The notes: generated by a model not told the origin, from the letters alone. Positions 13,391 to 45,063 are shown, numbered from the stretch's first letter. The stretch is DNA of 57,031 nt from Candidatus Shapirobacteria bacterium (GCA_041658955.1 JBAZZE010000004.1:1-57031); one strand, 5' to 3'. Translations and numbers: made by a program.

Positions 13391-13463
13391 GGCTGCTTAG
13401 CTCAGTTGGTAGAGCATCCCGTTTACATCGGGGTGGTCGGGGGTTCGAGTCCCTCAGCGGCCA
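13391..13463 (+). tRNA. tRNA-Val(TAC)
   Basis: GGCTGCT/AGCGGCC stem, TCCCG-TTTACAT-CGGGG, GGTTCGAGTCC. Confidence 0.95.
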
Positions 13464-25471: not shown

Positions 25472-26881
25472 ATGCTAACTAAATCAGATTTTCTTCTATT
25501 TCTAGAGGCTCCCATGCACTTGTGGGCAAAAGAGCATGGAAAGTTGCAGATAACGGCTCCATCAACCTATGACCAGCATCTCATGTTGCAAGGGTACGAG
25601 GTTGAAAAGGTTGCACATGACTACCTTACCCAATATGTACTTCCTAAATACAAAAATGCCGAACTGCTTTGGCAACAAACATATATGTCGGGTGAGTATC
25701 AATCTCGAGCCGATGGAATTATCCATGACCTAGACACAGATACTTATGATATCTACGAAATCAAGAGCTCCACTTCAGAGAAAAAAGATCATTTACCGGA
25801 TGCTGCTTTCCAATCTATTGTTATTGGAGACACTCTCACCATTGGCTCGATTCACTTAATACTCCTCAACGATGAGTATGTTCGAGGTGATTCTCTCGAT
25901 ATAGAACAACTATTTAAAGTACCCGATGTAACCAGTGATGTAGCTGAAATGACTCCAACTGTACAATCACAAATGAGAGAGGCGTTACGAATAGTAAAAA
26001 CGGATAGTTCCGATACTTTCCTCAATTGTCTTAATCCAAAGTGCTGTCCGTGCATGAATCTATGTCACCCCGATTTACCACAATACTCGATCTACAACAT
26101 TCCCAATCTCGCTCCGAAAAAACGCAGGCAGTTAGAAGAGGCTAAAACGATTGCAATCGAAGATATTGACCTAAATTTCACCTTTACACCCAAACAACAG
26201 AAGATCGTAGATGTCATGCAAAGCAAGACTCCATTTATCGACAAATCGACGATCCTAACGCTATTCCACGGGCTTACATACCCGTTATATTTCCTAGACT
26301 ATGAAACATACGACGAAGCCATGCCCCTCTACAAAGGCCATAAACCATACCAGAAAATGGTATTTCAGTATTCACTTCATATTGTTAGCAGTAATAGTGA
26401 AGAAATTCAGCACGAAGAGTATGTAGCTCTGGAGCCTGGCGATCCCGCAAGAGAGCTTGTAAGACATCTCCGAAGCCGTATTAGCGGAACTGGCTCAGTC
26501 ATAGTCTGGAATAAGGCGTTTGAAGGTGGACGAAACAAAGAAATGGCGGAGCTATACCCCGAATATAAAGATTTTCTACTAGATATAAACAATCGCATGT
26601 TCGATCTGATGGAAATTGTATCTAAGGGGTATTATCTCCACCCAGACTTTAAAGGCAGATGGTCGATTAAAAACGTATTGCCTGTTATGGTGCCAGAACT
26701 AAGCTATAACGATCTTGCAATCAATAAAGGTGATATGGCCATGATTGCATGGTGGGAGATGGTGCATAGTAACGACACGACTGCGAAACAAAGAACCGCC
26801 GACTCACTCCTTCAATACTGTGGATTAGATACACTAGCAATGGTGAAGATTTGGGAAAAGCTAAAAGAAATTATTGTCTAG
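25472..26881 (+). CDS. DUF2779-containing protein (RecB-like nuclease plus DEDD-like exonuclease fold)
   Basis: LTKSDF, ADGI...YEIKSST, YFLDYET, FQYSLH, VWNKAFE, SIKNVLP, YCGLDT. Confidence 0.8.
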   Translation: MLTKSDFLLFLEAPMHLWAKEHGKLQITAPSTYDQHLMLQGYEVEKVAHDYLTQYVLPKYKNAELLWQQTYMSGEYQSRADGIIHDLDTDTYDIYEIKSSTSEKKDHLPDAAFQSIVIGDTLTIGSIHLILLNDEYVRGDSLDIEQLFKVPDVTSDVAEMTPTVQSQMREALRIVKTDSSDTFLNCLNPKCCPCMNLCHPDLPQYSIYNIPNLAPKKRRQLEEAKTIAIEDIDLNFTFTPKQQKIVDVMQSKTPFIDKSTILTLFHGLTYPLYFLDYETYDEAMPLYKGHKPYQKMVFQYSLHIVSSNSEEIQHEEYVALEPGDPARELVRHLRSRISGTGSVIVWNKAFEGGRNKEMAELYPEYKDFLLDINNRMFDLMEIVSKGYYLHPDFKGRWSIKNVLPVMVPELSYNDLAINKGDMAMIAWWEMVHSNDTTAKQRTADSLLQYCGLDTLAMVKIWEKLKEIIV

Positions 26882-29522: not shown

Positions 29523-31110
29523 CTTGTGCCTCGTTTGATTCTTCTGCTTCCTCCATAGTTGCTTTCACAATATTCAGATCATAGTTATCCTTAGCAAATT
29601 CACATTTTCCAAGAATCATTTGAGGAATCTTCTTAATAGTTACGTTTGAATAGTGACTTTCGCTACCTGGTGCAAAAGATTTTGCGCATATTAACAAGCT
29701 CTCATTTTCAGTCATTTGTGTATGAATAGCGTCGAGTTGTTCCTTTGTAACAAAGCCCGTAGTTACAAAAATATAATCTGTTTCTGTGGATCTCCCTTGT
29801 TTCCAGTAAATCGCTTCATCAGGAGAATACTTGAATCCTTCATGCTTGCACATTGCAGCGGCCAACATATTGGCATTGTATTGTTCATCGATTACAAAGT
29901 TTCCAAAGCTATCTTTACGGAGAAGCGAGGGGGCAAGATTATAAAACTTAAAACCACCTCCACCTTTCCAATCAAGAGTCTCTGATAGTGGTAAACCATC
30001 ATTACCATCAACTACTTTTTTGAGTCTTGGAAGACAGTGCGTAGAAGCATGTTCACCAAACTCGATACCAATATGTTTCCTACCCATCTTGTGTGCCACT
30101 GCTGACGTAGTACCAGAACCCAAAAAGCTATCTAATACCCAATCACCAGGCTTCGTACTTAATTCAAGAACTCTTTTAATCAATCGTTCGGGCTTAGGTG
30201 TATCAAATGGATCAGTATTAAAAAGTATCTTCATCTCACGTTTAGCTTCTTGGTTGTCTCCGACCTCGACACGATACCATATAGTTTTAGAAACCAAGCC
30301 TTCTTGAACCTCTGACAGAAATAGCTTTAATCTTGGAACGTTGCTCCCGCTTTTACCAAAATACACGCGATTATCCTTAACTAATTCCTCAAATTTTAAT
30401 TTAGAAATTGACCAACAACGGCTTTGAGTTGGATTAACAACCTTTCCACTTGGAGTTGTTATTGGATAGTCAGTTGATGCATTATAAGTTTTAACAGTCA
30501 TATCAGAAGATGCCCAGATTCCCCTTGGATCGTTGTCGGGATTTTTAAACCGTTTATCAGTATCAGAGGTCCGAGGGAGCATTTGGGGTCGCCATATTTC
30601 TTTATTATTAGCGTAAACGAGGACGTGATCGTGGCTATCAGATAACCATTTAGCATCATTCTGTGGAGAAAATTTCTTTTCCCATATAACATTTGCAACA
30701 AAGTTATTTCTTCCAAATACTTCATCACAAAGAACTTTTAAATAGTGGCTCTCGTCATCATCAATTGAAATCCAGATACTACCCTCAGTTGGGTGAAGTA
30801 ACGTTTTTAGAATCTCAAGTCTTGGTTTAATTAAACTAAGCCATGTAGAATGTTCTAAGTTATCGTCATAGTGTTCAAAAGCACTACCGGTGTTATAAGG
30901 CGGATCGATATAGATACACTTAATTAGTCCAGCATAGTCTTGTTCTAAAGCTTTTAAGGCTAATAAATTATCACCATAAATAAGCATGTTTTCGGAGTTT
31001 GGATCACCATGCGATTTATTTGGATCTTCAATAAGGATTCGAGGCTCAAGTTTAATCTCCTGATCTTTTCCGATCCATGTCAGCTCTAATTTTTGCTTCT
31101 TGTCAGTCAT
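29512..31110 (-). CDS. mod: Type III Mod N6-adenine DNA methyltransferase
   Basis: KLELTWIGK, GDNL, YIDPPYNTG, FDTPKPE, VLDSFLGSGTT. Confidence 0.92.
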   Translation of the reverse strand: MTDKKQKLELTWIGKDQEIKLEPRILIEDPNKSHGDPNSENMLIYGDNLLALKALEQDYAGLIKCIYIDPPYNTGSAFEHYDDNLEHSTWLSLIKPRLEILKTLLHPTEGSIWISIDDDESHYLKVLCDEVFGRNNFVANVIWEKKFSPQNDAKWLSDSHDHVLVYANNKEIWRPQMLPRTSDTDKRFKNPDNDPRGIWASSDMTVKTYNASTDYPITTPSGKVVNPTQSRCWSISKLKFEELVKDNRVYFGKSGSNVPRLKLFLSEVQEGLVSKTIWYRVEVGDNQEAKREMKILFNTDPFDTPKPERLIKRVLELSTKPGDWVLDSFLGSGTTSAVAHKMGRKHIGIEFGEHASTHCLPRLKKVVDGNDGLPLSETLDWKGGGGFKFYNLAPSLLRKDSFGNFVIDEQYNANMLAAAMCKHEGFKYSPDEAIYWKQGRSTETDYIFVTTGFVTKEQLDAIHTQMTENESLLICAKSFAPGSESHYSNVTIKKIPQMILGKCEFAKDNYDLNIVKATMEEAEESNEAQDEQ

Positions 31111-31114
31111 AGTC

Positions 31115-34100
31115 TTATATTATCTTCCATTTAATCGTAAACAAGGTCTCAAGTTTTGCTTGTTGAGCTAGTCTTGCCTCGACAGACTCGAGTAATTTTT
31201 CTTTCTTTAATTCTACATCATCTTGAGTCTCAAATAACCGTCTTCTCATGTCATTACGCTTCTTTTCCCAATCCTTAATTTCTCGTTGTGCTTTTAATTT
31301 CTCATCAAGATTGATTATTTTCTTTGCATTTGTCTTAGCAGTCTTTATATCAATATCAAGCTTTCTCAGATCGATTTCTAGACCTTTTTTAACGTCTTCT
31401 GCCCAATTATCGAGCTTATCTACCTCGTGATCAAAGAAGCTACCATTGCGCTCGGCAATCTGAGTAGAAACGATCTTTATGTATTTATCTTCCAACTCAT
31501 TCAATTTGCCCTTATTCTCATCTGAAATTTGTTCTGGGGTGGTAGAGTCTGCGGATAATTGGAATATTTTCTTCATAATTTCGGGTTCTATAACATCTCC
31601 GGAGTCCGTAATAGCAGAGAGGATGATATTATCCTCGGCTTCAAAAGATTCGACAGTAAAGTTGGATATTTTTAACATTCCCCCCATTCCGATAAATGGC
31701 TGAAGGACTGAAATGATTGTTTGGTTATCTGAATAATTAAAAATAATTTCTGTTTCGTCTGACGGCTTTGACTTGATATCAGCTAATATTCGTTGAGCAA
31801 GCGAATGACCGGGGCGATAAACGTGTGCATCTTCAATATTTTTGCCAATCTTATATGGACCAGCATCAATTTCTTCGTTGGGGAAAGGGTTATTTTTCAA
31901 TACGAATGAATATTCATGTTCAGCAAATTCTGCATTGTCACCAAGATAATACCTCGTTGTATCCCACAGCCACCGGTTATACGTGTCGAGGTACATCGTG
32001 CTTTCTCGCAGATTGAGTTTAAGTTTTTCATGAACTTCTGCATCGAAGTTCTCAAGGAGAGTTTGGCGAGTTTCGGATAGATTATTCTGAATACTGTCAT
32101 CCATTTCTTCCTGTAGTTTATCGAAAGCAGTATTAATTTCTTCCGTCGTTCGACAATCCTGATAGATTGCAGCGATTCGCTTTTCAAAATCAACACCTGA
32201 CTCGATATTACCCAAGACCTCATCACTTGCTCCAAACACGCCTTTAAATAGCTTGAATTTTTGATCTAGTAGGTCGTACACGCGACTATCCGCTGCATTT
32301 TTACGGTTCACAAAGTTAATTACCACAACGTCATGCTTCTGACCATATCGATGACATCTTCCAATCCGTTGTTCAATACGCTGAGGATTCCATGGCAAGT
32401 CATAATTAATGACCAGAGAACAAAATTGTAAATTCACACCTTCCGCGGCAGCCTCTGTTGCAATCATTATGTCTGCTTCGTCATGGAAGTAATCGATGAG
32501 AGCTGACCTCATGTCTGCGGTCTTTGACCCCGTGAGCTTATCAGTATCTTTATTTCTCTCAAGCCAATTCTTGTAAATTTCTTTTGATTTTGGATCGTTA
32601 TTTGATCCGTTGAACAAAACAATTTTATCCTTGTATCCATTTTCCGGAAGAAGGGTTTCGGATAAATACTTTTGGGTAATAGTCGATTCAGTAAAGATGA
32701 TTGCTTTTTGCTTTGCTCCGAGATCTTTCGTCATCTCAAAACCTTTTTTCAAGGCAACAAGAAGTGCATCTCCTTTTGAATTGGTAAAAATGGCTTTTGC
32801 TAAACCTCTAAATTTCTCCAAGTCTTTCTTTTCCTGTTCCATGAGTGGAATATCGTCTTTGGTATAGACCTTAGATTTCTTGGTTGAATCTTCATCCTCG
32901 TCACCCTCCTCATCGTCTATCCATTCCTCGGACATTTCCTCAAATCCCTCAAAGTTTTGGGCAAGATCTGTGGTGTCAAACTCAGGTGGCATTGTTTCAA
33001 GCTTTTTCTTGGTTTCATCAATAACTAGACCGAGTTTAATTACGAGATTATTTAGGGTACTAGCAATGGCAAACGAAGATGATGCCAGAAGTTTACGCAA
33101 AATAAGCGTCATCAGTTGGCGTTGACTTGAGGGAAGTGCATACAGCGCTGGTCGTTGTAAATATTCCGACATACCGTCATACAATTCAATTTCTTGTTTT
33201 GTTGGTATGTAGTCTTGGGTAATTGGTTTACGTTCAGTGTATTTAATGTATTCCAACACTTGTCTACGAAGCGTACGAATACATACTGGCTTTAATCGAT
33301 TCCGCAGGTCAGTAAATAGAAGTTGTTTTGGATCGAGTATTTCATCTTCATCTGGTAATCCCATTTCTCTGGTAACAACACCTTTTCCAACACCTGATTC
33401 AGTAGACCATTTAATATCTTTTATGTGACTTGTAAGCTCCTGTTCTCTTGGAGCATGGGAATAGTTAGCTTTAAAACTTTTTAGATCACCAAATACATGA
33501 TCATCAATAATGCTCACTAAACCATAAAGTTCTAAGAGCGAATTTTGTAGAGGAGTAGCAGTCAATAGAATCTTTGGTACATCTGAAAGTGAGTACTTTA
33601 TTTCACGAGCTATTTTATTACTGGTCTTGTAAACATTTCTTAAGCGGTGAGCCTCATCGATAACCGATAAATCCCATTTGGTTTGTTTGACATACGGAGC
33701 TTTGCTTCTCGCAAAATGATATGAACAAATAATAATCTTATCTTCTTGATTAAATGGGTTCAGGTTGCCGTCTTTTATAGCCTGGTTAAATGATTTAGCT
33801 TCTAATATTACTGAGGGCAAGAAAAACTTTTCCTGCAATTCCATGTTCCATTGCTTTCGTAGTGCTGCGGGAACAATCAAAAGTATTTTTCGTTTTCTCT
33901 CTGCCCATTTTTGAGATAGGACGAGGCCAGCTTCAATAGTTTTGCCAAGTCCTACTTCATCAGCTAATATGGCACCCATAGATAGCGGTGACTTAAAAGC
34001 AAATAAAGCTGCTTCAATTTGATGAGGATTTAGGTCTACTTGAGCATTTGAGAGGGTTGAAGATAATTTTTCTAAACTATCGGATGAACATCTCTTGGTT

Positions 34101-34168
34101 AGTTCATATGCAAAGTATTTGGCGTGATATGGAGTTATTTTTTGCATAGAATGATCTGATTTTATCAC
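31115..34168 (-). CDS. SNF2-family helicase co-transcribed with mod-res
   Basis: LADEVGLGKT, IDEAHRL, TATPLQN, ATEAAAEGVNL, QRIGRCHRYGQ; C-terminal coiled coil. Confidence 0.9.
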   Translation of the reverse strand: MIKSDHSMQKITPYHAKYFAYELTKRCSSDSLEKLSSTLSNAQVDLNPHQIEAALFAFKSPLSMGAILADEVGLGKTIEAGLVLSQKWAERKRKILLIVPAALRKQWNMELQEKFFLPSVILEAKSFNQAIKDGNLNPFNQEDKIIICSYHFARSKAPYVKQTKWDLSVIDEAHRLRNVYKTSNKIAREIKYSLSDVPKILLTATPLQNSLLELYGLVSIIDDHVFGDLKSFKANYSHAPREQELTSHIKDIKWSTESGVGKGVVTREMGLPDEDEILDPKQLLFTDLRNRLKPVCIRTLRRQVLEYIKYTERKPITQDYIPTKQEIELYDGMSEYLQRPALYALPSSQRQLMTLILRKLLASSSFAIASTLNNLVIKLGLVIDETKKKLETMPPEFDTTDLAQNFEGFEEMSEEWIDDEEGDEDEDSTKKSKVYTKDDIPLMEQEKKDLEKFRGLAKAIFTNSKGDALLVALKKGFEMTKDLGAKQKAIIFTESTITQKYLSETLLPENGYKDKIVLFNGSNNDPKSKEIYKNWLERNKDTDKLTGSKTADMRSALIDYFHDEADIMIATEAAAEGVNLQFCSLVINYDLPWNPQRIEQRIGRCHRYGQKHDVVVINFVNRKNAADSRVYDLLDQKFKLFKGVFGASDEVLGNIESGVDFEKRIAAIYQDCRTTEEINTAFDKLQEEMDDSIQNNLSETRQTLLENFDAEVHEKLKLNLRESTMYLDTYNRWLWDTTRYYLGDNAEFAEHEYSFVLKNNPFPNEEIDAGPYKIGKNIEDAHVYRPGHSLAQRILADIKSKPSDETEIIFNYSDNQTIISVLQPFIGMGGMLKISNFTVESFEAEDNIILSAITDSGDVIEPEIMKKIFQLSADSTTPEQISDENKGKLNELEDKYIKIVSTQIAERNGSFFDHEVDKLDNWAEDVKKGLEIDLRKLDIDIKTAKTNAKKIINLDEKLKAQREIKDWEKKRNDMRRRLFETQDDVELKKEKLLESVEARLAQQAKLETLFTIKWKII

Positions 34169-34728: not shown

Positions 34729-36006
34729 ATGCGAAAACTGATGCTCTTGGCCGGTATCTTACTGACTTCGTTATTCTTCCCTCATTCTGTCTTGGCCGCA
34801 TCACCAATTCCTGAGATTAGCTCGTTTACTTCTGATACGCTCAAGATAATTACTTTGATTGCTTCAGCTTCTGCCGTATTTTTTCTACTACGCGGTGGAT
34901 ACCTCTACATCACATCAACTGGTAGACCAGAGGCACTAGAAGAAGCCAAGAAAACAATTCGTAATGCTCTGCTTGGGCTCGTGCTTGTCATCGCGGCCAA
35001 TGGGATCGTTTCACTTCTACAAGGAGCACTGGTAGGCAATTCTGATAGTTCTACAATTACCAACCTTCCTCTTACTCAAATTGAGAGTGTAGCGCCTAAC
35101 GAGGGTTTAACCCAAGTTCTCATCGATGCTGTTAATGGCTTTATTCAAAACATTGTGGAAAGTTCCACAAAGCCAGTCGTGGATGGGATCATGACACTTC
35201 TTACAACAACTCCTGAATTACTGACAAACGCCACTATCGTCAAGTTCTGGCTCATCATGCTTGGTATAACCGACACACTCTTTGTACTGGTTGTGGCACT
35301 CTTGGGACTTCAATTTATGAGTGCATCCACATTCGGGTTTGAAGAAATCGAGTTTAAACACCTCCTACCCAGAATTGGGTTAGCGTTCCTCGGAACGAAT
35401 GTATCGTTATTTCTGGCGGATTACGCCGTAAAAACATGTAACGTACTTGTGGCAGGTGTAATATCTGCAACCGGAGGACTCAACCATGCATGGGTCACGA
35501 ACGCAATTACTCTACAAAATATTACAACTGGTACAGCTCCGCTCATCACTTTGATTTTTCTACTTCTGTTCTTGATCGTAGCGATTGTGCTTCTACTTAT
35601 GTATATCAGCCGTTTGATTGTTATAGCTCTTGGAGCTGTACTCTCTCCATTCATATTCTTACTTTGGACACTCCCTAAGACCGCCGACTTTGCTGAAATG
35701 GCAATTAAGAGCTATCTAGTCTCAGTATTTATGATTTTTATTCATGTCGTAACTATTCAACTGGCCGGATCATTCCTGGCACTACCTGAGCAAACCAATA
35801 ACTCACTAATCTCAATTGCGGTAGCCATTGGACTTTTACTCACGTTGCTTAAGATCCCAAGCTTCTTGATGCAACTAATTTTATTTTCTCGAAGTGTGGG
35901 AACGGTCAAACACATGGGAAGTCAGATTATTAACGTCATGAGTACTGATACAGCTCACAAAGGTACAGTTGGCTCCAAGACACCTAGAAAGACCTTAAAC
36001 GTATGA
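34729..36006 (+). CDS. Pilin-like domain fused to a VirB6/TrbL-like polytopic membrane protein
   Basis: N-terminal GGYLYITSTGRPE...AKKTI is paralogous to the upstream pilin; about 6 further TM helices with LSPFIF, LPKT. Confidence 0.72.
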   Translation: MRKLMLLAGILLTSLFFPHSVLAASPIPEISSFTSDTLKIITLIASASAVFFLLRGGYLYITSTGRPEALEEAKKTIRNALLGLVLVIAANGIVSLLQGALVGNSDSSTITNLPLTQIESVAPNEGLTQVLIDAVNGFIQNIVESSTKPVVDGIMTLLTTTPELLTNATIVKFWLIMLGITDTLFVLVVALLGLQFMSASTFGFEEIEFKHLLPRIGLAFLGTNVSLFLADYAVKTCNVLVAGVISATGGLNHAWVTNAITLQNITTGTAPLITLIFLLLFLIVAIVLLLMYISRLIVIALGAVLSPFIFLLWTLPKTADFAEMAIKSYLVSVFMIFIHVVTIQLAGSFLALPEQTNNSLISIAVAIGLLLTLLKIPSFLMQLILFSRSVGTVKHMGSQIINVMSTDTAHKGTVGSKTPRKTLNV

Positions 36007-36473
36007 GAACAACAATCATTCCAGCACAAATCACGACAGTTGAAGACAAAATCGCAGGATCTCTCAATTTCGCACAGATACTACTTCTGATGTTGCCTGT
36101 TCTCTGGGGGACACTGGTATATGCGATATTTATTCCAACGATGAAGCTAGCTCCGTACAAGGTAAGCTTGGTGCTATTGGTTAGTGCTACCTCACTTATT
36201 TTGGCGATCCGAGTTAAAGATAAAATCATTGCGGAATGGATTGGAATATTACTTCGCTACAAATTACGTCCGAAATTCTATATCTTCAATAAAAATGACA
36301 TAACTGAGCGGTTAGTTGATTTGCCATTTGAATCTGTAGCAAACCACAAAAAGGCAGTAGCAAAAACAACCAAGAGGCTCACTAAAGAACTGTCGGTCAA
36401 GGAGCTTATCAAATTTGAGCAGGCAATGGCATCAAAGAATCTGGCTGTATCGTTTCGGTACGGGAGGAAATGA
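36003..36473 (+). CDS. PrgI-family (VirB3-like) protein
   Basis: IPAQITTVEDKIAGSLNFAQ, two TM helices, RYKLRPKFY. Confidence 0.8.
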   Translation: MRTTIIPAQITTVEDKIAGSLNFAQILLLMLPVLWGTLVYAIFIPTMKLAPYKVSLVLLVSATSLILAIRVKDKIIAEWIGILLRYKLRPKFYIFNKNDITERLVDLPFESVANHKKAVAKTTKRLTKELSVKELIKFEQAMASKNLAVSFRYGRK

Positions 36474-37087
36474 CTATGACACTATTCAATAAATCTCAAT
36501 CATCGCGACAGCAAATACAAATCAAAAAAGTCTTGGATAATGTTCTGGTTTTGCCTAACCAGGAATATCGGTTGATTTTGGAAACCTCATCCATAAACTT
36601 CGAGCTCAAGAGTGAAGAGGAACAGGACGTCATGATCGATAGTTTCCAAAACTTTCTAAATGCCTTACCTTGCCAGATTCAAATCTTGGTACGAGTTCGT
36701 GAGATTGATATCGACAAATATGCTGAAGATGTGGCTAGATCAAAAGATAAAGAGAAAGATCCGATCTATCGCAAGCAAATCGAGGGATATAGTGCTTTTG
36801 TTAAAAAACTTGTATCTGGTAATAGCATTCTCTCAAGACGATTTTATATTGTCTTGCCGTATCACCACCCAGACCGGCACGAAGATTGGAAAGTAATCAA
36901 AGAACATTTAAATCTAAATCGCGATATTGTCGTCAAAGGCTTGGAGCGGATGCAGATGAAAGCTAAAACTCTCTCTAGTATCGAGATTATTAACTTGTTC
37001 TACAGTTTTTATAACCCTGAATCGGTTAAGACCCAGGCGGTTACAAAAGAAGCATTATCGGCATTATTCAAACACAATTATGTTTAA
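36470..37087 (+). CDS. VirB4-associated accessory T4SS protein
   Basis: SSINFELKSEEEQD...FLNAL, RRFYIVLP; between PrgI and VirB4. Confidence 0.68.
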   Translation: MTMTLFNKSQSSRQQIQIKKVLDNVLVLPNQEYRLILETSSINFELKSEEEQDVMIDSFQNFLNALPCQIQILVRVREIDIDKYAEDVARSKDKEKDPIYRKQIEGYSAFVKKLVSGNSILSRRFYIVLPYHHPDRHEDWKVIKEHLNLNRDIVVKGLERMQMKAKTLSSIEIINLFYSFYNPESVKTQAVTKEALSALFKHNYV

Positions 37088-38867
37088 TATCACCAAAATC
37101 AAACCTATTCGTGATTGGCAAAAGCGCCAAAAGAAAAAACGCTTAGCGCACCAAGCTATCAACGTCACGTTTGGCGAACAAGACCAACTCGACCTTATTT
37201 CCTATGCCGGACTTAAAGAGGAATCGAGCTATTTACAGATAAACGATACTTTTGTCCGAACACTCTTTGTTTCGGGATACCCATATGTTGCCTCTACTGG
37301 CTGGCTTTCAATGCTGGTGAACTTTAACCACAATATTGACATTAATTATCACGTTGAACAGATTGATCCTCTCATAGCTCTGCCCAAGCTTAACCGCAAA
37401 ATCACAGAACTTGAGTCCACCAAGCGCACCATGCTCAAAGAAGGACGGGTTATCGGAAGTGAAATCACTGATCCGCTTGAATCTGCCATGGAACTCAAAG
37501 ATAAAATTCAGCGGGGCATGGAAAAACTGTTCCAAGTTTCCATATATATGACTGTCACCGCTGAGAGCTTGGTCGAACTGGATAAAGTGACGAAGCTGTT
37601 AGAAACGGTTATGCAGACAAGGCTTTTCTATATAAAACCCGCGACTTTCCAACAAGTCGAAGCCCTGCAATCAGTCTTACCTCGAGGTGAAAATAAGCTG
37701 GCTCAAAAGAGAAACTTGGATAGCTCAAGTGCTGCGCTTACATTCCCATTTGTGTCCTCCGAACTGGTACAGGAGTCCGGAATCCTCTATGGCATCAACA
37801 AATCGAATAATTCTCTGGTTATCATTGACCGCTACAGTCTAAACAATGCCAACTCCATTATTTTTGCCCAGTCTGGTTCAGGCAAGAGCTTTACTGCCAA
37901 AGTAGAGATCCTGCGTCACCTCATGCAAGGTACAAAAGTCATAGTCATTGATCCAGAACGCGAATATAAGCAACTGGCTAAAAGCGTCAACGGAACCTAT
38001 ATCAAACTATCAAGCACCTCGAAAGAAAAGATTAACCCATTTGATTACTCCCAAACCTCCGTCACGGGTGAGAATAGCCTCGCTGAGCACATACAAGACC
38101 TCACAGAGCTCATATCGCTCATGGTTGGCAGTCTGACTTCGGAAGAGCGGGCAACCGTTGATCGCGCGCTCCTGCAAACATATAAAAATGCGGGCATGAG
38201 TAAACGCAAGAATGGTAGGAAACCAGCGAAAATTGTCTATCCAGTCCTCAAGGATTTCTATAAGGAACTAAAATCAATGAAGCACAAAGACCTCTGTAAC
38301 AGACTTGAGCGGTTTGTAAAAGGCTCACTTGGTGGTGTTTTTGATTCTCAGACAAATATCGAGATGAATAATCGCCTTGTAGTGTTTGATATCAAGGATC
38401 TCAATGAATCACTTCGTCAGATCATGATGATGGTGGTTGCCAATTTCGTCCATAGTGAGGTCAAACAGAACCCACAAAAAAGAATGCTGGTCATTGATGA
38501 GGGTTGGATTCTACTACAGGAGCCAGAAAGCGCCCGATTTATCTCAGGACTTGTCAGGCGCGCCAGAAAATACTATCTGGGGGTCACAATCATTACTCAA
38601 CAAGCAAATGACTTCCTGTCACAGGAGTACGGGAAGGCTATTGCTAGCCAATCTTCGCTTCGTATTCTCATGCGCCAAGATACTACCACCATCAAAAAAG
38701 TGGCGGAAGAATTCCATCTTTCGGCCTTTGAACAGCATTACCTATTAACGTGTGAACGCGGTGAGGCTCTCATCATTGCTGATCAAAACCATGTAGCTGT
38801 AAAAGTGGTTGCCTCCGAAGAAGAGCACCCACTCCTCACAACCGATCCTCGGGAGATCTACATCTGA
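37080..38867 (+). CDS. virB4: VirB4-like conjugation ATPase
   Basis: FAQSGSGKSF, IDPEREY, FDIKDL, LVIDEGW, RRARKY, ITQQ. Confidence 0.9.
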   Translation: MFNITKIKPIRDWQKRQKKKRLAHQAINVTFGEQDQLDLISYAGLKEESSYLQINDTFVRTLFVSGYPYVASTGWLSMLVNFNHNIDINYHVEQIDPLIALPKLNRKITELESTKRTMLKEGRVIGSEITDPLESAMELKDKIQRGMEKLFQVSIYMTVTAESLVELDKVTKLLETVMQTRLFYIKPATFQQVEALQSVLPRGENKLAQKRNLDSSSAALTFPFVSSELVQESGILYGINKSNNSLVIIDRYSLNNANSIIFAQSGSGKSFTAKVEILRHLMQGTKVIVIDPEREYKQLAKSVNGTYIKLSSTSKEKINPFDYSQTSVTGENSLAEHIQDLTELISLMVGSLTSEERATVDRALLQTYKNAGMSKRKNGRKPAKIVYPVLKDFYKELKSMKHKDLCNRLERFVKGSLGGVFDSQTNIEMNNRLVVFDIKDLNESLRQIMMMVVANFVHSEVKQNPQKRMLVIDEGWILLQEPESARFISGLVRRARKYYLGVTIITQQANDFLSQEYGKAIASQSSLRILMRQDTTTIKKVAEEFHLSAFEQHYLLTCERGEALIIADQNHVAVKVVASEEEHPLLTTDPREIYI

Positions 38868-38868
38868 C

Positions 38869-39477
38869 ATGAATCCAAAACTGTTCCTAACCCTCTGGTC
38901 GTTTCGCAAGGAACTAAAATTCGTATTCCTAGCATTCCTCACTATCCTCATGGTGCCGGTTATCGGGGTCATCTTACTCACCAGAGTAGGTATCAACATC
39001 ATTTCCGATAAATTAGTTGAAAGTAACCCAGTCACACAGTCAATTGAGATCAAAGATCCAACGTCCGGAGAAGTTGTTAAATCCATATCTCCACAGGTCG
39101 CTTGGCCTGTTCACGGGGTAATAACACTAGAATTTGGCCAATCCAGTCTCTATCAAGTCTTTCACACTGGTATTGATATTGCGAACCCCTCAGGGCAAAT
39201 CGGTGATCTTATCAACCCCGCAATGGATGGCGAAGTCATGTATGCTGGAGAAATATTCTGGGGGTATGGAAAGCACGTTATCATTGACCACGGTAACAAT
39301 ATAACGAGCATCTATGGCCACTTAGATAAGATTTTCGTCTACAAAGGCCAGAAAGTAACTATTACAGACACCATTGGGAAAGAGGGACAAACTGGATGGG
39401 CTACCGGACCACACTTACACTTTGAAACGAGGATATATGGGATTCCGGTTAATCCAAGAGTATTTTTAGGCGAATGA
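38869..39477 (+). CDS. M23-family peptidase (cell-wall hydrolase)
   Basis: N-terminal TM, FHTGIDIA, YGHL, TGPHLHFE; start MNPKLF. Confidence 0.9.
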   Translation: MNPKLFLTLWSFRKELKFVFLAFLTILMVPVIGVILLTRVGINIISDKLVESNPVTQSIEIKDPTSGEVVKSISPQVAWPVHGVITLEFGQSSLYQVFHTGIDIANPSGQIGDLINPAMDGEVMYAGEIFWGYGKHVIIDHGNNITSIYGHLDKIFVYKGQKVTITDTIGKEGQTGWATGPHLHFETRIYGIPVNPRVFLGE

Positions 39478-39502: not shown

Positions 39503-42500
39503 ATGTTTCTAGGGTTATTTATGAGTAAAACTGGTGGAAAAGCAACATATAAGGGAATTAATGCACAGTCATGGGCAGCATTATCATTATTTCTTCAATA
39601 CGTCAGAAGCTCCAATCTTGATCACATAGCTTTTGAACAGGATGAGCTCAAAGACTTTGACTTGGTTTTCTCCTCAGGAAAAAAAATTATTTGTGAATCC
39701 AAAACAGAAAGAGTTACCCATGGTGTCATCAAAGGTATATTAGATAACCTGATTGATAATAAAAAGGTAGGAACTGATGATGAAATACTTATTATTTGCC
39801 AGGATTTAAGTCCAGATGCACAGGGTGATGTTGAAAACGTAAAGTATTTTGAGGAAATAAAGGAGAAATTAAAGAAAAAAGGATTTACTGACCAGCATTT
39901 AGAATTACTACCCAAAATCAAGTTTTGGAAAGTTGATCAAGATACTAATGAATTTATTGTAACGACACTACTTGCTGAAATTCTGGGTGCATGGTTTCCT
40001 GATACAACCTTTGATGAAATAGTAAGCAATATTCTTATTGATAGAGTTTATAAAGGATCTCAACTAGGTAAAACATTTACGAAGGATGAGTTTTACAAGC
40101 AGATTGATGAGAGAAAAAAACAGGTTCAAGATGATGCAGGCTATAAAGATGAACAAAAGGAAAAAATAGAAAGAATAAATAAATTGCTCACAGCAATTGA
40201 TAGTCCAACCAGCCAAGACTGGTGCAATAACGAAATAACTCTTCTTACTACCACTCCTGATCTCTATTACCTCACAATAAAAAAGCTAGACGGTCTTCCA
40301 AATCTTAATCTACCTCAATGGGATAACTTATGGAAAGCAGCAGCCAGAGGAACATTCTCGATAAATGTTTTCGAAATTTTCCAAAAGAATGTAAATGATC
40401 CAGAAAACCAGGAATATTTAATCAACTTTTTACCAACAGTTATTGAAAGGATATTAAGTTTTTATAGGCAAGAATTTATTGTTGTGGACATTGTGAAGAT
40501 CTGTTCAGCAATTCTTGACCAGACACACAAGTACGACAAACAAATATTTGAAATACTAAAAAGCTTAATCGAGGTCAATACCAAAGAGGTCTTCTTTATC
40601 AAAAAATCACATCGTAAGGAATGGGAGCAAGAACAAACAACGGAGGCGTTAGAAAAACTTTATCAGAAAGCAGAAGAGAGTGTTAAAAAAGAAATTGTCG
40701 CCTTTATTTTTATGTTTTTTGATTTGGTGAGTGATGATGGTGAGTACTGGCACTATACCCCAGACTCCATTTTTGGAATCCTCAAAATACATACGGAAGC
40801 TGATGTTGAGTCTAGAATTATATCTTTATCGGAAGAACTGTCAAAACAATATGAGAAATTTTATAACAGACATGGCAGAAGATCCACATATCAGGGCTGG
40901 GAACACATGGGTTTTACAAATACTGATAGGCATTTTATTACTCATATATTGCAGCCAATATTAACTCAGTATTATGCAGCTAATCCTGATGCAGCGTGGA
41001 AATTTATTACCGAAAAATTAATTACAGTAAAACAAGATTTAGTATCAGCAGAGAAACCAGATTATTTAAATAGAGCTTCTGTTCCAGTAATAATTAGTGC
41101 TTATTTAGATCCTAAATATAAAAAGGAAGCACTCGCAATAATCAAAGACTTTGTAGAAATGCGAAAAGGAATTCCTCATAAGACAGAGCTGATTTACAAG
41201 CAAGTAGGCGGAGACGCGTTTTCTGATGATCAAAAATGGGAACTTGTAAAATTACAACTCGATTATGAACCATACAAAGGCATCCCTGCTAATGATCATG
41301 TAGAAAAAATAGTTAGTGAGTTAGCAAATAAAGGACATGAGGATGCATTAGCTGCTTTGGAGGCATGGGGAAAAAACCCTGAGTATAATAAGTTTCGAGG
41401 AGTTCTAGAAGGAAATATTACTTCAAATGTTCCAGGTCTACTTGCGAACCCAAAGACGAAGAGCAGGGGCATAGCCATTTTAAGAGAGTTTCTCAAAAGT
41501 GACTATTTCATAAATAAACAGGGAGAGTGGGACGTATGGCAAACAGCTAGAGTTTTATCACAGGTTTTGGTTGAAGACTTTGAAGAAGGAAAGGCAATTA
41601 TCCAGGAAATATGGGTTCAAGATTCACTCACTCATAATCAGCAGATTGTAATTACTAGTAGTATTAATGACATTGAAAATAATGATAGTTTAATTGCAAG
41701 AATTTATGATGAGATAGTTTCATCTTGGCTCACTGATTGTAAAGATGATGTAAAACTTTTTATAGCAAAAATACCTGATGTCCAATCAAGATTGTCCGTT
41801 GTTCGATATGGAGACAAACTAGCAAAGGCAAAAAAGTATGAAGGTGCAATAAAAATTGCCAGATTCTTTATTGATGATCCAGATCCGACTTTAGAAAACG
41901 ATCCTAATGACCCAGAAGGAAAACACAATCTCCATGAGCAGGTTAAAAAGGGCAAGGACGTAAATGAGATTACTACAATTAGAGCCTCAGTCGCATGGAT
42001 ATTACAAAGTATAGCCATATTGCCAGGGCGTGATTATATTCCTGAGATTATTCCGCTAGTAGAAAAACTAACTAAAGACGAAAATTATTACGTAAGGGCG
42101 TACGCTTGTATCCCATTAGAACAGCTAATGACCGTAAGGCATACTGTTTTACCCACTGATTCCACGGAAAGATTCCTCAGTATTGAGGTTGCAAATGAAA
42201 TTGAGCGGATCGCTTATGCAATGTTGCGAAATAAAGAGAACTGGGGACTAGAACAAATAATGATGGGAATTTTGAGACTTTTTTATAACGTTAGAAGCGT
42301 TACCACTGAGGAGGCAAAGGAAATATTGAATACTTTCTTGGAAACTAAGAATGACAAAATTATTGAAGAAGCCAGAAGCTTATTTATTTTCTTTGCAGAG
42401 TTTAGAGCAGGTGCAATCGATGAGGAGAAACTGAAATACGTTTATAGCAAAGAAAGAATAGCAGAGTTAACGGATTTTGATGATACTTACTTCAAGGAAT

Positions 42501-43060
42501 TGCTTATTAAAATCTTAACCGATTCATCAAGTGAAGTTAAGGCAGGGCTTGCTTGGGCATTTTGGCACTTACCAAAAGAACAGGGAGTTAATTTTGAAAA
42601 CTGTTTTGCAATTGCCTATAAATATCTTCTAATCCTCGCTGATTCTTATGAGCATGAAGTTATGACAAATATCTATTATTTCATTGAAGAAAATTTTGAG
42701 CATAAGTTTGAAGAATGTTTTGAACTTTGGAAAAAATGCTTAACTGTAGAAAGACCATATTTGCAAGGAAAAATCACAAAAGATAATCTTTACGAAATGC
42801 ACTGGTGGCCATTTCATTACAATGGCAAGATCCTTGTCAAAATTGCAGACGAGAAAGGTGATGAAGAGTTTTTAGAATGGGTCGATTATCTAGCTGACTA
42901 TCCAGAAGGTGTCATTATTGCAAATGATTTAGATCTTGTTATTGATAGACTTGCCAATCTTCCTATCACTGATAAAGCAAAGTCTGTTTTTGAGAAACTA
43001 GTTACTCGAAATCCACAGTATTTTGTAAAAATGAAAAGTTGGTTAGCAGTTATCTCGTAA
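39503..43060 (+). CDS. 1185-aa protein: N-terminal PD-(D/E)xK (Cap4/DUF4297-like) nuclease plus long HEAT-like helical region; candidate antiphage protein
   Basis: GGKATYKGINAQ...FEQDELKDFDL...IICESK; HEAT-like LTKDENYYVRAYA and LTDSSSEVKAGLAW; no canonical Walker A seen. Confidence 0.7.
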   Translation: MFLGLFMSKTGGKATYKGINAQSWAALSLFLQYVRSSNLDHIAFEQDELKDFDLVFSSGKKIICESKTERVTHGVIKGILDNLIDNKKVGTDDEILIICQDLSPDAQGDVENVKYFEEIKEKLKKKGFTDQHLELLPKIKFWKVDQDTNEFIVTTLLAEILGAWFPDTTFDEIVSNILIDRVYKGSQLGKTFTKDEFYKQIDERKKQVQDDAGYKDEQKEKIERINKLLTAIDSPTSQDWCNNEITLLTTTPDLYYLTIKKLDGLPNLNLPQWDNLWKAAARGTFSINVFEIFQKNVNDPENQEYLINFLPTVIERILSFYRQEFIVVDIVKICSAILDQTHKYDKQIFEILKSLIEVNTKEVFFIKKSHRKEWEQEQTTEALEKLYQKAEESVKKEIVAFIFMFFDLVSDDGEYWHYTPDSIFGILKIHTEADVESRIISLSEELSKQYEKFYNRHGRRSTYQGWEHMGFTNTDRHFITHILQPILTQYYAANPDAAWKFITEKLITVKQDLVSAEKPDYLNRASVPVIISAYLDPKYKKEALAIIKDFVEMRKGIPHKTELIYKQVGGDAFSDDQKWELVKLQLDYEPYKGIPANDHVEKIVSELANKGHEDALAALEAWGKNPEYNKFRGVLEGNITSNVPGLLANPKTKSRGIAILREFLKSDYFINKQGEWDVWQTARVLSQVLVEDFEEGKAIIQEIWVQDSLTHNQQIVITSSINDIENNDSLIARIYDEIVSSWLTDCKDDVKLFIAKIPDVQSRLSVVRYGDKLAKAKKYEGAIKIARFFIDDPDPTLENDPNDPEGKHNLHEQVKKGKDVNEITTIRASVAWILQSIAILPGRDYIPEIIPLVEKLTKDENYYVRAYACIPLEQLMTVRHTVLPTDSTERFLSIEVANEIERIAYAMLRNKENWGLEQIMMGILRLFYNVRSVTTEEAKEILNTFLETKNDKIIEEARSLFIFFAEFRAGAIDEEKLKYVYSKERIAELTDFDDTYFKELLIKILTDSSSEVKAGLAWAFWHLPKEQGVNFENCFAIAYKYLLILADSYEHEVMTNIYYFIEENFEHKFEECFELWKKCLTVERPYLQGKITKDNLYEMHWWPFHYNGKILVKIADEKGDEEFLEWVDYLADYPEGVIIANDLDLVIDRLANLPITDKAKSVFEKLVTRNPQYFVKMKSWLAVIS

Positions 43061-43101: not shown

Positions 43102-43821
43102 ATGGCATCATTTTACGGTCATCCCAGCCGATATCTCAATACAAATAGAACTATTAGTAAATACGGTGCATTGGCTTATCTAATTCACTTCACCATCATT
43201 ATTGGAATAGTCATCTGGAGATTGTCGATAGCCTCATTTTCATTGCCCGCAGTATTCGCTATTACACTCGTATTTGGGCCATTACTGCTCGTTACAGACT
43301 CCCTGATGAGAAAAGAAGAGTCTTTGATGTATAAATTCCGCAGTGGAATCGTCGGTGAAAAGTTCATTGGTGATGAATTAAAAAAGCTGGATGCTAGCTA
43401 TACAGTTTTTCAAGATATCCACGTACCGGGAAAGAAAGAAAATATAGATTTTGTTGTTGTCGGACCAACGGGTATTCACGCTATAGAAGTCAAAAATCAT
43501 CATGGAACGGTAGGATTTAATGGTGACGAGCTTACCCTAAATCAAAAATCATTTGAAAAGGACTTTTTACGCCAAACCATGAGGGAAGCTACTTCACTTC
43601 ATGATTATTTGATTTCGTCTCGTATCACCAACGCATTCGTCATTCCGATTATAGTTTTCTCTCATCGCTTTGCTATTGTTCGATTCGGGATTCAACCAAT
43701 TAAAAATGTTCGTGTTATACAATATCGCTGGCTAATAAAGATGATTACCAGTGAGCCAAGAAGCTATCCAGATCAGCGAACAGTCGATTTATTAAAGGCT
43801 ACATATACTAGCGCCATATGA
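43102..43821 (+). CDS. 2-TM NERD-domain nuclease
   Basis: Two TM helices, GIVGEKFI, NIDFVVVGPTGIHAIEVKN. Confidence 0.82.
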   Translation: MASFYGHPSRYLNTNRTISKYGALAYLIHFTIIIGIVIWRLSIASFSLPAVFAITLVFGPLLLVTDSLMRKEESLMYKFRSGIVGEKFIGDELKKLDASYTVFQDIHVPGKKENIDFVVVGPTGIHAIEVKNHHGTVGFNGDELTLNQKSFEKDFLRQTMREATSLHDYLISSRITNAFVIPIIVFSHRFAIVRFGIQPIKNVRVIQYRWLIKMITSEPRSYPDQRTVDLLKATYTSAI

Positions 43822-44114
43822 CATACCAAGTATTTGTTGATGATAACTTTCACTTCATGGACGAGAGTGAGAGGTACTTGCATGGTGAATTTGACACCTG
43901 TGAGGAAGCGATTGTTGCCTGCAAGAAGATTGTTGATGACTGCCTGAAAAGCTCGTATCAACCAAAAATGAGTGCAGACCAGTTATATGAATCGTATATT
44001 GGGTTTGGTGATGATCCATTCATCAAATGTGATGATAAATCATGTGACTTTCATGCGAGGGATTATGCAAAATCACGGTGCCAAGCAATTATCGACGAGA
44101 AAATAACTAGTTAA
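43818..44114 (+). CDS. Small acidic hypothetical protein (98 aa)
   Basis: ATGA-coupled to the NERD gene; YQVFVDDNFHFMDESERY. Confidence 0.65.
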   Translation: MTYQVFVDDNFHFMDESERYLHGEFDTCEEAIVACKKIVDDCLKSSYQPKMSADQLYESYIGFGDDPFIKCDDKSCDFHARDYAKSRCQAIIDEKITS

Positions 44115-44341
44115 TTGGATAATTTGTCTTCAGATTTCAAGTCACGAGCTTTAATACCCATAAAGGTATCTGAAGTTTTAAGAAGCTCGGCGAACTCTGC
44201 AACATTTTCTTTGTGGTCAGGGTCAAGAACATCGAGAATTTTTTGTACATCACCCACGTTGTTTACATCCAAATTGTGATCGTGTGCATATTGGAGCGCA
44301 TCGATGACTAGTTCTGACTTTTTGGTTACTGTATCGTTCAT
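44111..44341 (-). CDS. Small hypothetical protein (76 aa)
   Basis: ATGA overlap with the PLD stop; SD AAGGAGG. Confidence 0.65.
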   Translation of the reverse strand: MNDTVTKKSELVIDALQYAHDHNLDVNNVGDVQKILDVLDPDHKENVAEFAELLKTSDTFMGIKARDLKSEDKLSN

Positions 44342-44859
44342 ATTTCCTCCTTAGTATAACAAATATTTTGTATTTCTCTGACATGATCATATTTTAGAAA
44401 GGAAAACAGGTCTTTAGCCTTCTTCTCATCATCCTCGCGCTCCATAAGTTCACGGCTATTCTTGTGTGACAAAATGTTAAGACTGCCTTTCCAGACGATC
44501 CTACGGTCAATCATGGCTAATTTCCTATGGTGAGTCTTGCTCATAAATACTTGTACGCCTATTTTTTCAAAAAACTGGATTCCTGCCTCAGCTTGTTCGG
44601 ACATGAACGAATCGTGCTCTTCGGGATGCCGAGTTATGATAAACACAGCTATTTTGCGCTCCATAAGTGACTCAAAGACGTGCTTCAGATTTCGCAGCTT
44701 TGGAACGGTGATAAATGGACTTTCAATAATTACTTCATGTTTTGCCTGAGCCAAATCACGCTCGAATTGATAGTAAAAGGAGTTTTCATCTGCTAAAATA
44801 ACGTTTGCAGTCTGGCGAGAGTCAGATTGAGAGCCCATATAGGACGAATTGTAACTCAT
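44338..44859 (-). CDS. Single-HKD phospholipase D-family nuclease
   Basis: IESPFIT, HRKLAMID (HxKxxxxD), WKGSLN; no signal peptide. Confidence 0.85.
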   Translation of the reverse strand: MSYNSSYMGSQSDSRQTANVILADENSFYYQFERDLAQAKHEVIIESPFITVPKLRNLKHVFESLMERKIAVFIITRHPEEHDSFMSEQAEAGIQFFEKIGVQVFMSKTHHRKLAMIDRRIVWKGSLNILSHKNSRELMEREDDEKKAKDLFSFLKYDHVREIQNICYTKEEI

Positions 44860-44983: not shown

Positions 44984-45054
44984 TGCCCCGTCGTCTAATG
45001 GTAGGACAGCAGCCTTTGGAGCTGTTTACTGTGGTTCGAATCCATGCGGGGCAA
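44984..45054 (+). tRNA. tRNA-Gln(TTG)
   Basis: TGCCCCG/CGGGGCA stem, GCAGC-CTTTGGA-GCTGT, GGTTCGAATCC. Confidence 0.95.
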
Positions 45055-45063
45055 CACTAAAGT

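Follow-up and report, generated by a model that had tools for sequence, protein, structure and literature searches.

The gene at 39503..43060 and its family

The gene described here lies at positions 39503..43060 (+) of a 57,031-nucleotide stretch of DNA from Candidatus Shapirobacteria bacterium (GCA_041658955.1, JBAZZE010000004.1:1-57031), called the window below. Its product joins a predicted Cap4-type nuclease domain to a long HEAT-like alpha-solenoid. The open reading frame (ORF) opens at 39503 and is intact over 1185 codons. The coding sequence probably begins at the second ATG (39521..43060, +; 1179 residues), because homologues open with MSKTGG..., which matches that codon. Residue numbers throughout count from 39503.

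At E<=1e-3 the protein has 75 homologues, nearly all spanning 98-99% of the query, with lengths of 1173-1237 residues; none is informatively named. The dN/dS ratio between the window gene and relatives 86-89% identical to it is 0.09-0.11. Hence, this is a real gene under purifying selection and not a chance ORF. The exact gene sequence is also present in groundwater metagenome DNA. No transmembrane or signal-like segment was found in a scan of the protein. A first-pass annotation, made by a model from the sequence alone, had called the gene AT-rich relative to the transfer genes; the difference is there (GC content 0.34-0.35 vs 0.39-0.45 for the type IV secretion system (T4SS) genes), but as a signal it is weak, other parts of the window being equally AT-rich. 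A perfect sigma-70 consensus (TTGACA, 16 nt, TATAAT; 12/12) runs antisense within the gene at 40817-40844 (-). It may be there by chance, because promoter-like sites are no commoner in the region than in shuffled sequence (26 found vs 33.8 expected).

An exhaustive profile search returned 504 clusters at 50% identity, 294 of them at E<=1e-30. We fetched 23 loci from genomes representing species, and metagenomes supplied another 79. ORFs were predicted throughout and clustered (113 loci); removing redundancy left 78 loci. The family gene at each locus is called the anchor; L numbers denote loci and P numbers denote representatives from the exhaustive search. Named hosts are almost all members of the Candidate Phyla Radiation (CPR)/Patescibacteria, including Daviesbacteria, WWE3, Shapirobacteria, Gottesmanbacteria, Doudnabacteria, Giovannonibacteria, Moraniibacteria, Peribacteria, Microgenomates, Saccharibacteria and Parcubacteria. 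The few other labels are Margulisiibacteriota, Actinomycetota, one Heimdallarchaeaceae metagenome-assembled genome (MAG) and several third-party 'Gammaproteobacteria' MAGs. The last of these correspond to contigs labelled 'uncultured Gammaproteobacteria' (L006, L007, L010, L012, L013, L014, L023), and the labels may be wrong: in the genes they carry and in their nearest kin, such as L008 (Saccharibacteria, 91% identity), these contigs look like CPR.

The window protein has no match in NCBIfam, PADLOC v2 or PHROGs, and in Pfam only a sub-threshold match to HEAT_EZ. Against viral structures (BFVD), Foldseek returned generic repeat proteins only (TM-score <=0.17), with no sign of a phage homologue. 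A full-text literature search gave no description of a Cap4-like nuclease combined with a HEAT solenoid. The protein was proposed at the outset to be a new candidate, and it indeed stays unassigned in known defence sets: no PADLOC v2 model and no paper that we found covers the family. In two full-length members (P0134, P0154) the nuclease domain is preceded by an additional XRE-type HTH_3 domain (E 1e-12 to 1e-14) at the N-terminus, which could be a mis-joined upstream regulator or a genuine fusion.

The N-terminal domain has a predicted Cap4-type nuclease fold

AlphaFold, Foldseek and hhalign together point to a Cap4-type PD-(D/E)xK nuclease domain in residues 1-235 (39503..40207, +). Helix 1 contains a G18-I-N-A-Q22 motif (39554..39568, +), the counterpart of the Cap4/DUF4297 G-x-x-Y-Q motif. 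The predicted catalytic residues, placed by conservation and by their position on strands 2 and 3, lie within 39653..39703 (+): D51 at 39653-39655, E65 at 39695-39697 and K67 at 39701-39703. In the alignment of 65 homologues G18, Q22, Q32, E45, D51 and E65 are invariant (65/65), and K67 is lysine in 64/65. The motif set read from the sequence in the first-pass annotation (G18-I-N-A-Q22, E45, D51 and E65-S-K67) is thus real and conserved.

Residues 16-99 are modelled as a helix, three strands, a helix and a strand, which is an alpha-beta-beta-beta-alpha-beta core. D51 stands at the opening of strand 2, and E65-x-K67 lies on strand 3 (AlphaFold models, DSSP). In the models this placement is the canonical PD-(D/E)xK geometry.

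The Foldseek list for the whole model is dominated by HEAT solenoids, and the nuclease domain was modelled separately; alone, it reaches a mean predicted local distance difference test score (pLDDT) of 85. Its top 12 Foldseek matches in the PDB are all Cap4 nuclease domains (6vm5, 6wan, 6wam, 6vm6), with E 1.8e-8 to 2.3e-7 and TM-scores of 0.54-0.60 over ~200 columns. Lamassu LmuA (E ~1e-4) and HerA-DUF4297 (E 7e-3) come next. Hence, by predicted fold the domain belongs to the Cap4/DUF4297 nuclease superfamily, and the structure agrees with the Cap4-like assignment made earlier from the motifs (best matches at E ~2e-8). The profile comparison points in the same direction: hhalign aligns residues 1-65 with small Cap4-like proteins encoded upstream of the anchor in relatives (92% probability, E 5.5e-7), placing G18..Q22 on the GFxYQD motif of these partner nucleases. 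One such Cap4-like partner passes the cut-off of Pfam PF14130 (28.7 bits vs 26.2).

The rest of the protein is a predicted solenoid without an NTPase

Residues 236-1185 (40208..43057, +) are predicted by AlphaFold and Foldseek to form an all-helical HEAT-like alpha-solenoid of ~56 helices and zero strands. The whole-protein model was built on the 65-sequence alignment and has a mean pLDDT of 87.2. Its Foldseek matches are CAND1, karyopherins/importins, condensin HEAT subunits and other HEAT solenoids at E ~1e-7, which bears out the long all-helical region of HEAT-like units that had been proposed. In Pfam the sole scoring repeat is HEAT_EZ at residues 826-870 (E 1.8e-5, 25.6 bits vs a cut-off of 27). 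PDB sequence (phmmer) and profile searches returned designed alphaRep (HEAT-like) proteins only.

The most conserved scaffold loops, located by the alignment and the model, are G465-W-E-H-M-G...D475-R-H-F478 and E517-K-P-D-Y-L-N-R-A-S526 (40868..41080, +). An acidic loop, F-I-D-D-P-D-P ... D-P-E-G-K-H, is followed by the HEAT repeat at 826-870 (41870..42112, +; conservation, Pfam and alphaRep matches). G465, D475, F478, P519, D520 and R524 are invariant, with a conserved run at 517-526, and so are K560, D792, P795, H811, G817 and R827. From the alignment, these invariant polar loop residues suggest a conserved ligand of the scaffold, which could be a protein, DNA or a small molecule; the first-pass annotation had supposed that the helical scaffold senses a phage protein, and the residues are compatible with this without pointing to it. 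Conservation along the scaffold is even, with 0.41-0.64 majority identity per 40-residue block. Net charge and isoelectric point (pI) were considered as a hint of DNA binding and set aside as uninformative, the family pI spanning 5.1 to 9.4.

The only string that resembles a P-loop, GSQLGKT at residues 185-191 (40055..40075, +), is not a Walker A motif, as judged from its conservation and fold context. K190 is lysine in only 14/65 sequences, and the string lies in a helix-loop-strand context of the AlphaFold model and not in a strand-loop-helix one; together these rule it out as the Walker A of a STAND domain. Pfam, NCBIfam and PADLOC contain no nucleoside triphosphatase (NTPase) family that matches the window protein, and the model has no Rossmann-type sheet beyond the nuclease core. 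The earlier reading of the protein as NTPase-free, with wrong spacing in GSQLGKT, is confirmed by these results. A degenerate STAND domain, which would have assigned the protein to a known Avs type, was sought by structure and in the libraries and none was seen.

Upstream partner genes are exchanged, at some loci together with the anchor 5' end

Of about 70 non-redundant loci that could be assessed, about 60 have a same-strand gene ending between -47 and +17 nt from the anchor start. These upstream partners belong to at least six unrelated families. The commonest are ~300-aa Cap4-like proteins with a G-F-x-Y-Q-D motif (c2, 18 loci) and ~270-aa Schlafen/AlbA_2 proteins (c3, Pfam E 1e-16, 17 loci), followed by ~200-aa Mrr-like proteins (c6, 12 loci) and ~265-aa PF14130 Cap4_nuclease proteins with weak PADLOC matches to HamA, SAVED-PDDEXK and LmuA (c12, 7 loci). 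Two further families, of ~360 aa (c25) and ~215 aa (c58), have no identification and occur at 3 loci each. The variable partners are nuclease folds with catalytic motifs retained. Sometimes a third gene lies downstream of the anchor.

The partner type is the same in only 29/70 nearest-neighbour anchors, and partners differ even where the anchors are 92-95% identical (L083, with an AlbA_2 partner, against L084, with a Cap4-like one; also L057/L060 and L017/L083). A change of partner is accompanied, in the pairs L094/L084 and L020/L022, by a change in the N-terminal ~300 residues of the anchor, the remainder being >90% identical. Thus, because these ~300 residues swap together with the partner, the 5' end of the anchor behaves, as far as sequence comparison tells, as an exchangeable cassette.

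Fusions, again at the level of sequence, tie the partner families to the scaffold. In P0148 (1274 aa) a c2-type domain replaces the usual N-terminal domain (blastp E 5e-39), and in P0131 and P0141 (1322 and 1343 aa) a c25-type domain does so (E 1e-13 to 6e-16). Proteins that consist of the scaffold only number ~21 among 150 listed representatives; they are 950-1020 aa long and start at profile position ~220. At one such locus (L096) the adjacent upstream gene aligns to the profile of the Cap4-like partners (82% probability, E 1e-5), and it fits this profile rather than the anchor's own N-terminal domain.

No homologue of any partner family is encoded anywhere in the 57-kb window. Relatives 86-89% identical to the window anchor (L029, L032) also stand without a partner, and relatives 65-72% identical (L030, L037, L034) retain the c2 partner. 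The description of the system as a single gene therefore holds for the window copy and not for the family, which usually has the translationally coupled upstream gene.

Proposed mechanism

We suggest that the product of this gene is the hub of a conflict system, directed against phages or mobile elements, that is undescribed and mostly specific to CPR/Patescibacteria. This reading draws on sequence, predicted structure, genomic context and analogy, and we assign it a probability of roughly 0.55. The conserved alpha-solenoid of ~950 residues would serve as the constant sensing and assembly platform, and the nuclease modules, fused at the N-terminus or encoded just upstream, would be the effectors. 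In the window copy the fused Cap4-type nuclease would be the only effector. In uninfected cells the nuclease domains would be kept apart or occluded. With infection, an associated ligand would bind the conserved solenoid loops, and the protein would rearrange or oligomerise. Oligomerisation would pair two Cap4-type domains into a working cleavage pocket, followed by degradation of DNA, either that of the invader or indiscriminately (abortive infection). NTP hydrolysis would play no part. Where partner nucleases are present, including Schlafen-like ones, they would dock close to the first ~300 residues of the hub.

Defence activity and activation by oligomerisation are both proposed here, the latter by analogy. 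Tetramerisation of LmuA brings two Cap4 domains together to build one cleavage pocket (PMC12663957). Without an NTPase, the HEAT-like solenoid of DSR2 captures a phage tail tube protein and so switches on the N-terminal enzyme (PMC11850899, PMC11263360). Schlafen proteins of bacteria act as antiphage effectors (PMC12330615). Effector modularity, moreover, is a hallmark of immune systems. A broader claim, that the solenoid hub represents an NTPase-free modular immune class docking interchangeable nuclease cassettes (Cap4-like, Schlafen-like, Mrr-like and others), fused or in trans and traded by recombination even among near-identical hubs, is more doubtful, and we put it forward tentatively. 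If it is true, the solenoid fills the role that STAND, SMC or HerA ATPases have elsewhere, and innate immunity of CPR/Patescibacteria, apart from restriction-modification (R-M), could rest in large part on this system.

Several points weigh against the defence-hub proposal. Conservation of the scaffold is even and fairly strong, whereas a direct sensor of fast-evolving phage proteins would more usually be hypervariable. The Pfam PF14130 Cap4_nuclease hidden Markov model gives no match to the window protein at E<=1. The AlphaFold models of the whole protein and of the N-terminal domain are monomers, containing no oligomer and no contact between partner and scaffold. The window copy, standing without a partner, is the minority solo form and could be degenerate or differently regulated. 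A search of sequence runs found the gene in metagenomic DNA runs only and in no RNA runs. Finally, an R-M or defence gene is present in 26/51 loci with at least 9 kb, and a defence or mobile-element marker in 32/51, but these frequencies have no matched background, so that enrichment is here a judgement and not a statistic.

Comparison with known systems

Functionally, the closest parallel to the window protein is DSR2 of Bacillus subtilis, likewise a single protein of ~1,000-1,200 residues with an N-terminal enzyme and a long HEAT-like solenoid, and likewise without an NTPase. The likeness is one of kind, with no detectable homology: a PDB search with the family profile gave no DSR2 chain at E<=10, and none is among the top 50 Foldseek matches. 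The effector of DSR2 is a SIR2 NADase, whereas the window N-terminal domain is of predicted Cap4 type and has no SIR2 match in Pfam. DSR2 is also a single gene of Firmicutes, unlike the CPR solenoid family with its usual swapped upstream partner. The absence of an NTPase, which the first-pass annotation set apart from known nuclease effectors, is thus upheld as an observation but is not unprecedented, DSR2 with its SIR2 domain and HEAT-like solenoid being NTPase-free already. What is new is a Cap4-type nuclease on an NTPase-free solenoid; an immune protein made of an enzyme and a solenoid is already known in kind.

The Cap4 effectors of CBASS (cyclic-oligonucleotide-based antiphage signalling systems) share the predicted fold of the N-terminal domain (TM-score ~0.6 over ~200 residues), the helix-1 G..Q motif and the D...ExK residues. 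The window protein, in contrast, carries a solenoid instead of a nucleotide receptor, and neither a SAVED/CARF domain nor a CD-NTase gene is found in it or in its neighbours (Pfam, PADLOC). Lamassu LmuA also combines a Cap4-type nuclease with a non-catalytic regulatory region, its system has variable effectors (Cap4, Mrr, Sir2 and others), and it is the source of the oligomerisation model borrowed above (PMC12663957). The SMC-like LmuB/LmuC are absent from the window and from the recurrent neighbours of the 78 non-redundant loci, and the PADLOC LmuA models do not match the anchor.

Avs proteins resemble the window protein in having an N-terminal nuclease effector and a C-terminal helical repeat sensor, and in the presumed recognition of a conserved phage component. 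They differ in the central STAND NTPase that defines them, which the window protein does not have. HerA-DUF4297 and Hachiman (HamA/HamB) likewise place Cap4-related nuclease effectors under a large partner, but no HerA or HamB helicase partner occurs at the anchor. A DUF87/HerA-like match at 37080-38867 was considered as a HerA-DUF4297 partner and rejected: the gene is a T4SS VirB4/TraG-type ATPase, and such a neighbour is present at only 2/78 loci. The 'ARMADA' defence system is DISARM-like and unrelated.

Very few defence systems have been identified in CPR/Patescibacteria (PMC12366544). Two Patescibacteria-restricted defence proteins, LdgA and DdgA, were described from libraries averaging 2-kb inserts and reportedly have no structural homology (PMC12366544). 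They are unlikely to be the same as the hub gene, because such inserts are shorter than its 3.5 kb and no structural homology was reported; insert size and description are all that sets them apart. Defence genes from Patescibacteria have proved functional in E. coli (PMC12366544), which makes the idea proposed here directly testable. CPR/Patescibacteria account for a large share of bacterial diversity. If the family is a defence system, it would be, next to DSR2, a second and mechanistically distinct case in which a HEAT-like solenoid controls an enzyme with no nucleotide hydrolysis. It would also add to SAVED, SMC and STAND/HerA a further kind of regulator, the fourth, of a Cap4-type nuclease. 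The partner swaps on near-identical hubs offer a natural experiment on how one scaffold controls different effectors.

Genomic context and alternative explanations

Positions 13391-44900 of the window suggest, by gene content, an island like an integrative and conjugative element (ICE) with defence cargo, because a large serine recombinase beside tRNA-Val and tRNA-Leu (13454-15262, -) is combined with a T4SS coupling protein (15941-18532) and T4SS pilin/VirB4-like/M23 peptidase genes (34729-39477), the VirB4/TraG-type ATPase at 37080-38867 lying inside the latter cluster. Between them are a GmrSD/HEC-06-type enzyme (21220-23310, -; PADLOC E 3e-110), a type III restriction endonuclease (26871-29522, -; E 6e-180), a type III methyltransferase (29512-31110, -; E 7e-188) and a DrmD-like SNF2 protein (31115-34168, -; E 2e-211). 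The immediate upstream neighbour of the window anchor, 43 nt away, is the M23 peptidase of the T4SS cluster.

Downstream of the anchor by 41 nt is a gene for a NERD-domain protein with an N-terminal hydrophobic segment (43102..43821, +, with 43102 as its probable start; Pfam NERD E 3e-17). A 98-aa ORF with no family (43818-44114, +) overlaps its stop codon. A 173-aa PLD-domain protein follows (44338-44859, -; E 4e-9; PADLOC MkoC E 2e-12, DrmC E 1e-4), just before tRNA-Gln (44984-45055). The NERD and PLD genes are thus present as first noted, but they are not conserved with the anchor: the NERD gene is a singleton in the 113-locus clustering, and relatives 89-91% identical have a Zn-ribbon gene in its place. 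We therefore discarded the two as conserved partners, and the NERD gene is a doubtful member of the system.

R-M genes recur upstream in some of the relatives. At 13/41 loci with at least 3 kb upstream, a co-oriented series of an HKD-SNF2 gene, a type IIG restriction endonuclease-methyltransferase gene, the partner and the anchor is found. The HKD(PLD)-SNF2 helicase corresponds to the PADLOC C3a139/DrmD-like type, and the type IIG enzyme has ~1050-1175 aa. Loci with this pair upstream are L023, L048, L059, L072, L044, L047, L050, L013, L039, L074, L067, L087, L060 and L061; at L030 (12709-18989) the pair follows the anchor instead. These two genes, the partner and the anchor may form a larger four-gene unit. 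HsdR stands upstream at 4/41 of the same loci.

Such an arrangement would be expected if the family were an accessory or backup nuclease module of R-M-type systems and not an autonomous sensor, an explanation we hold to be unlikely. The solenoid would then dock on, or be licensed by, the type IIG/HKD-SNF2, type I or type III machinery, or read DNA modification or DNA ends, and the nucleases would finish DNA already marked by the R-M module. The fixed order at 13/41 loci, the HsdR genes and the reversed arrangement at L030 argue for it, and within 13 kb of the window anchor there are the DrmD-like SNF2 protein, the type III methyltransferase and endonuclease and the DrmC/MkoC-like PLD protein. 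The Mrr-like, AlbA_2 and Cap4-like partners are, besides, DNA-binding nuclease folds typical of modification-dependent enzymes. However, ~60% of the assessable loci have no R-M gene directly upstream, and the adjoining types vary (IIG, I, III), which is more like clustering in defence islands than like one machine. In the window, moreover, five opposite-strand T4SS genes separate the R-M genes from the anchor.

The position of the window gene directly after T4SS genes, together with a distribution confined to CPR, could point to a housekeeping or lifestyle function of these bacteria, for example the cytoplasmic processing of scavenged DNA for nucleotides, or to the role of an effector of the adjacent T4SS-like apparatus. 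Long HEAT/ARM proteins are common among secreted effectors. Nevertheless, T4SS genes neighbour the anchor at only 2/78 loci, and patchy, island-borne occurrence in a variable context with partner swapping is unexpected for a housekeeping gene. We regard this explanation as very improbable.

Carriage on mobile elements is repeated. Serine recombinases are found in 11 loci; L001, L004, L010 and L029 are serine-recombinase islands, and the window and L013 represent T4SS elements. This, with the cassette-like swapping of 5' modules that resembles polymorphic toxin loci, would also fit a weapon or addiction module of selfish elements. Here a nuclease toxin, with the solenoid or the partner as its regulator or antidote, would exclude competing elements or punish loss of the element. 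Since most defence systems ride mobile elements too, this context does not discriminate between the two explanations. No small immunity-type gene co-varies with the nuclease, the partners are nuclease folds with their catalytic motifs kept and not inhibitors, and the protein has no secretion signal or transmembrane segment. Thus, an addiction module seems improbable to us, and we retain the proposal of a solenoid hub in defence.

One of these carriers is a recurrent ~10-kb element (L001:1-12600, L004:2293-12925, L010, L029:2710-12531). It begins with a large serine recombinase, a tRNA_anti-like OB-fold protein, an XRE-type helix-turn-helix protein and a ~510-aa TerL-like protein with weak Terminase_6C and GpA_ATPase matches. 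It ends with a small HTH_Tnp-like protein and a ParB_N-N6_N4 methyltransferase, followed by the anchor. The element looks like a satellite-like or prophage-remnant CPR island that carries the system as cargo.

Recurrent downstream and accessory genes

A gene like PD-T7-5, itself a known single-gene defence, lies downstream of the anchor at 3 loci (~305 aa, PADLOC E 9e-22). It overlaps the anchor by 8-17 nt in L001/L016 (L001:11662-12579) and in L059. In L020 the PD-T7-5 homologue is located two genes before the anchor, upstream of HsdR and the partner.

A multi-Zn-ribbon protein of ~365 aa (c5, up to 565 aa) with several CxxC motifs and no family is encoded at 7 non-redundant loci; copies are at L032:12530-13618, L030:11429-12538, L006, L007, L020, L037, L051 and L059. 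In the closest relatives of the window, those 89-91% identical, this gene overlaps the anchor stop by 8-22 nt. The window does not have this gene; the NERD gene occupies that position instead.

The next gene after the anchor at L013, L043, L048, L072 and L107 encodes a Cas4-like PD-(D/E)xK nuclease of 220-260 aa (Pfam PDDEXK_1 E 5e-14, PADLOC Cas4 E 1e-10); the two genes are spaced by -25 to +32 nt. No CRISPR genes were seen near these five loci. A membrane-anchored trypsin-like peptidase gene adjoins GmrSD in the window (23328-24614, -). Nuclease-protease pairs (PMC12799240) combine an MBL-fold nuclease with a protease fused to HamA/Avs/LmuA, and they are not the Cas4-like or free trypsin-like genes seen here. 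The window peptidase shares 67-70% identity with the proteins encoded immediately after the anchor in L039 (8060-9343) and L047, and such a gene is also present at L072. Despite the similar peptidases, the anchors of L039 and L047 are only ~40% identical to that of the window, and the peptidase gene could be an accessory that moves between loci, or it could encode a protease common in CPR.

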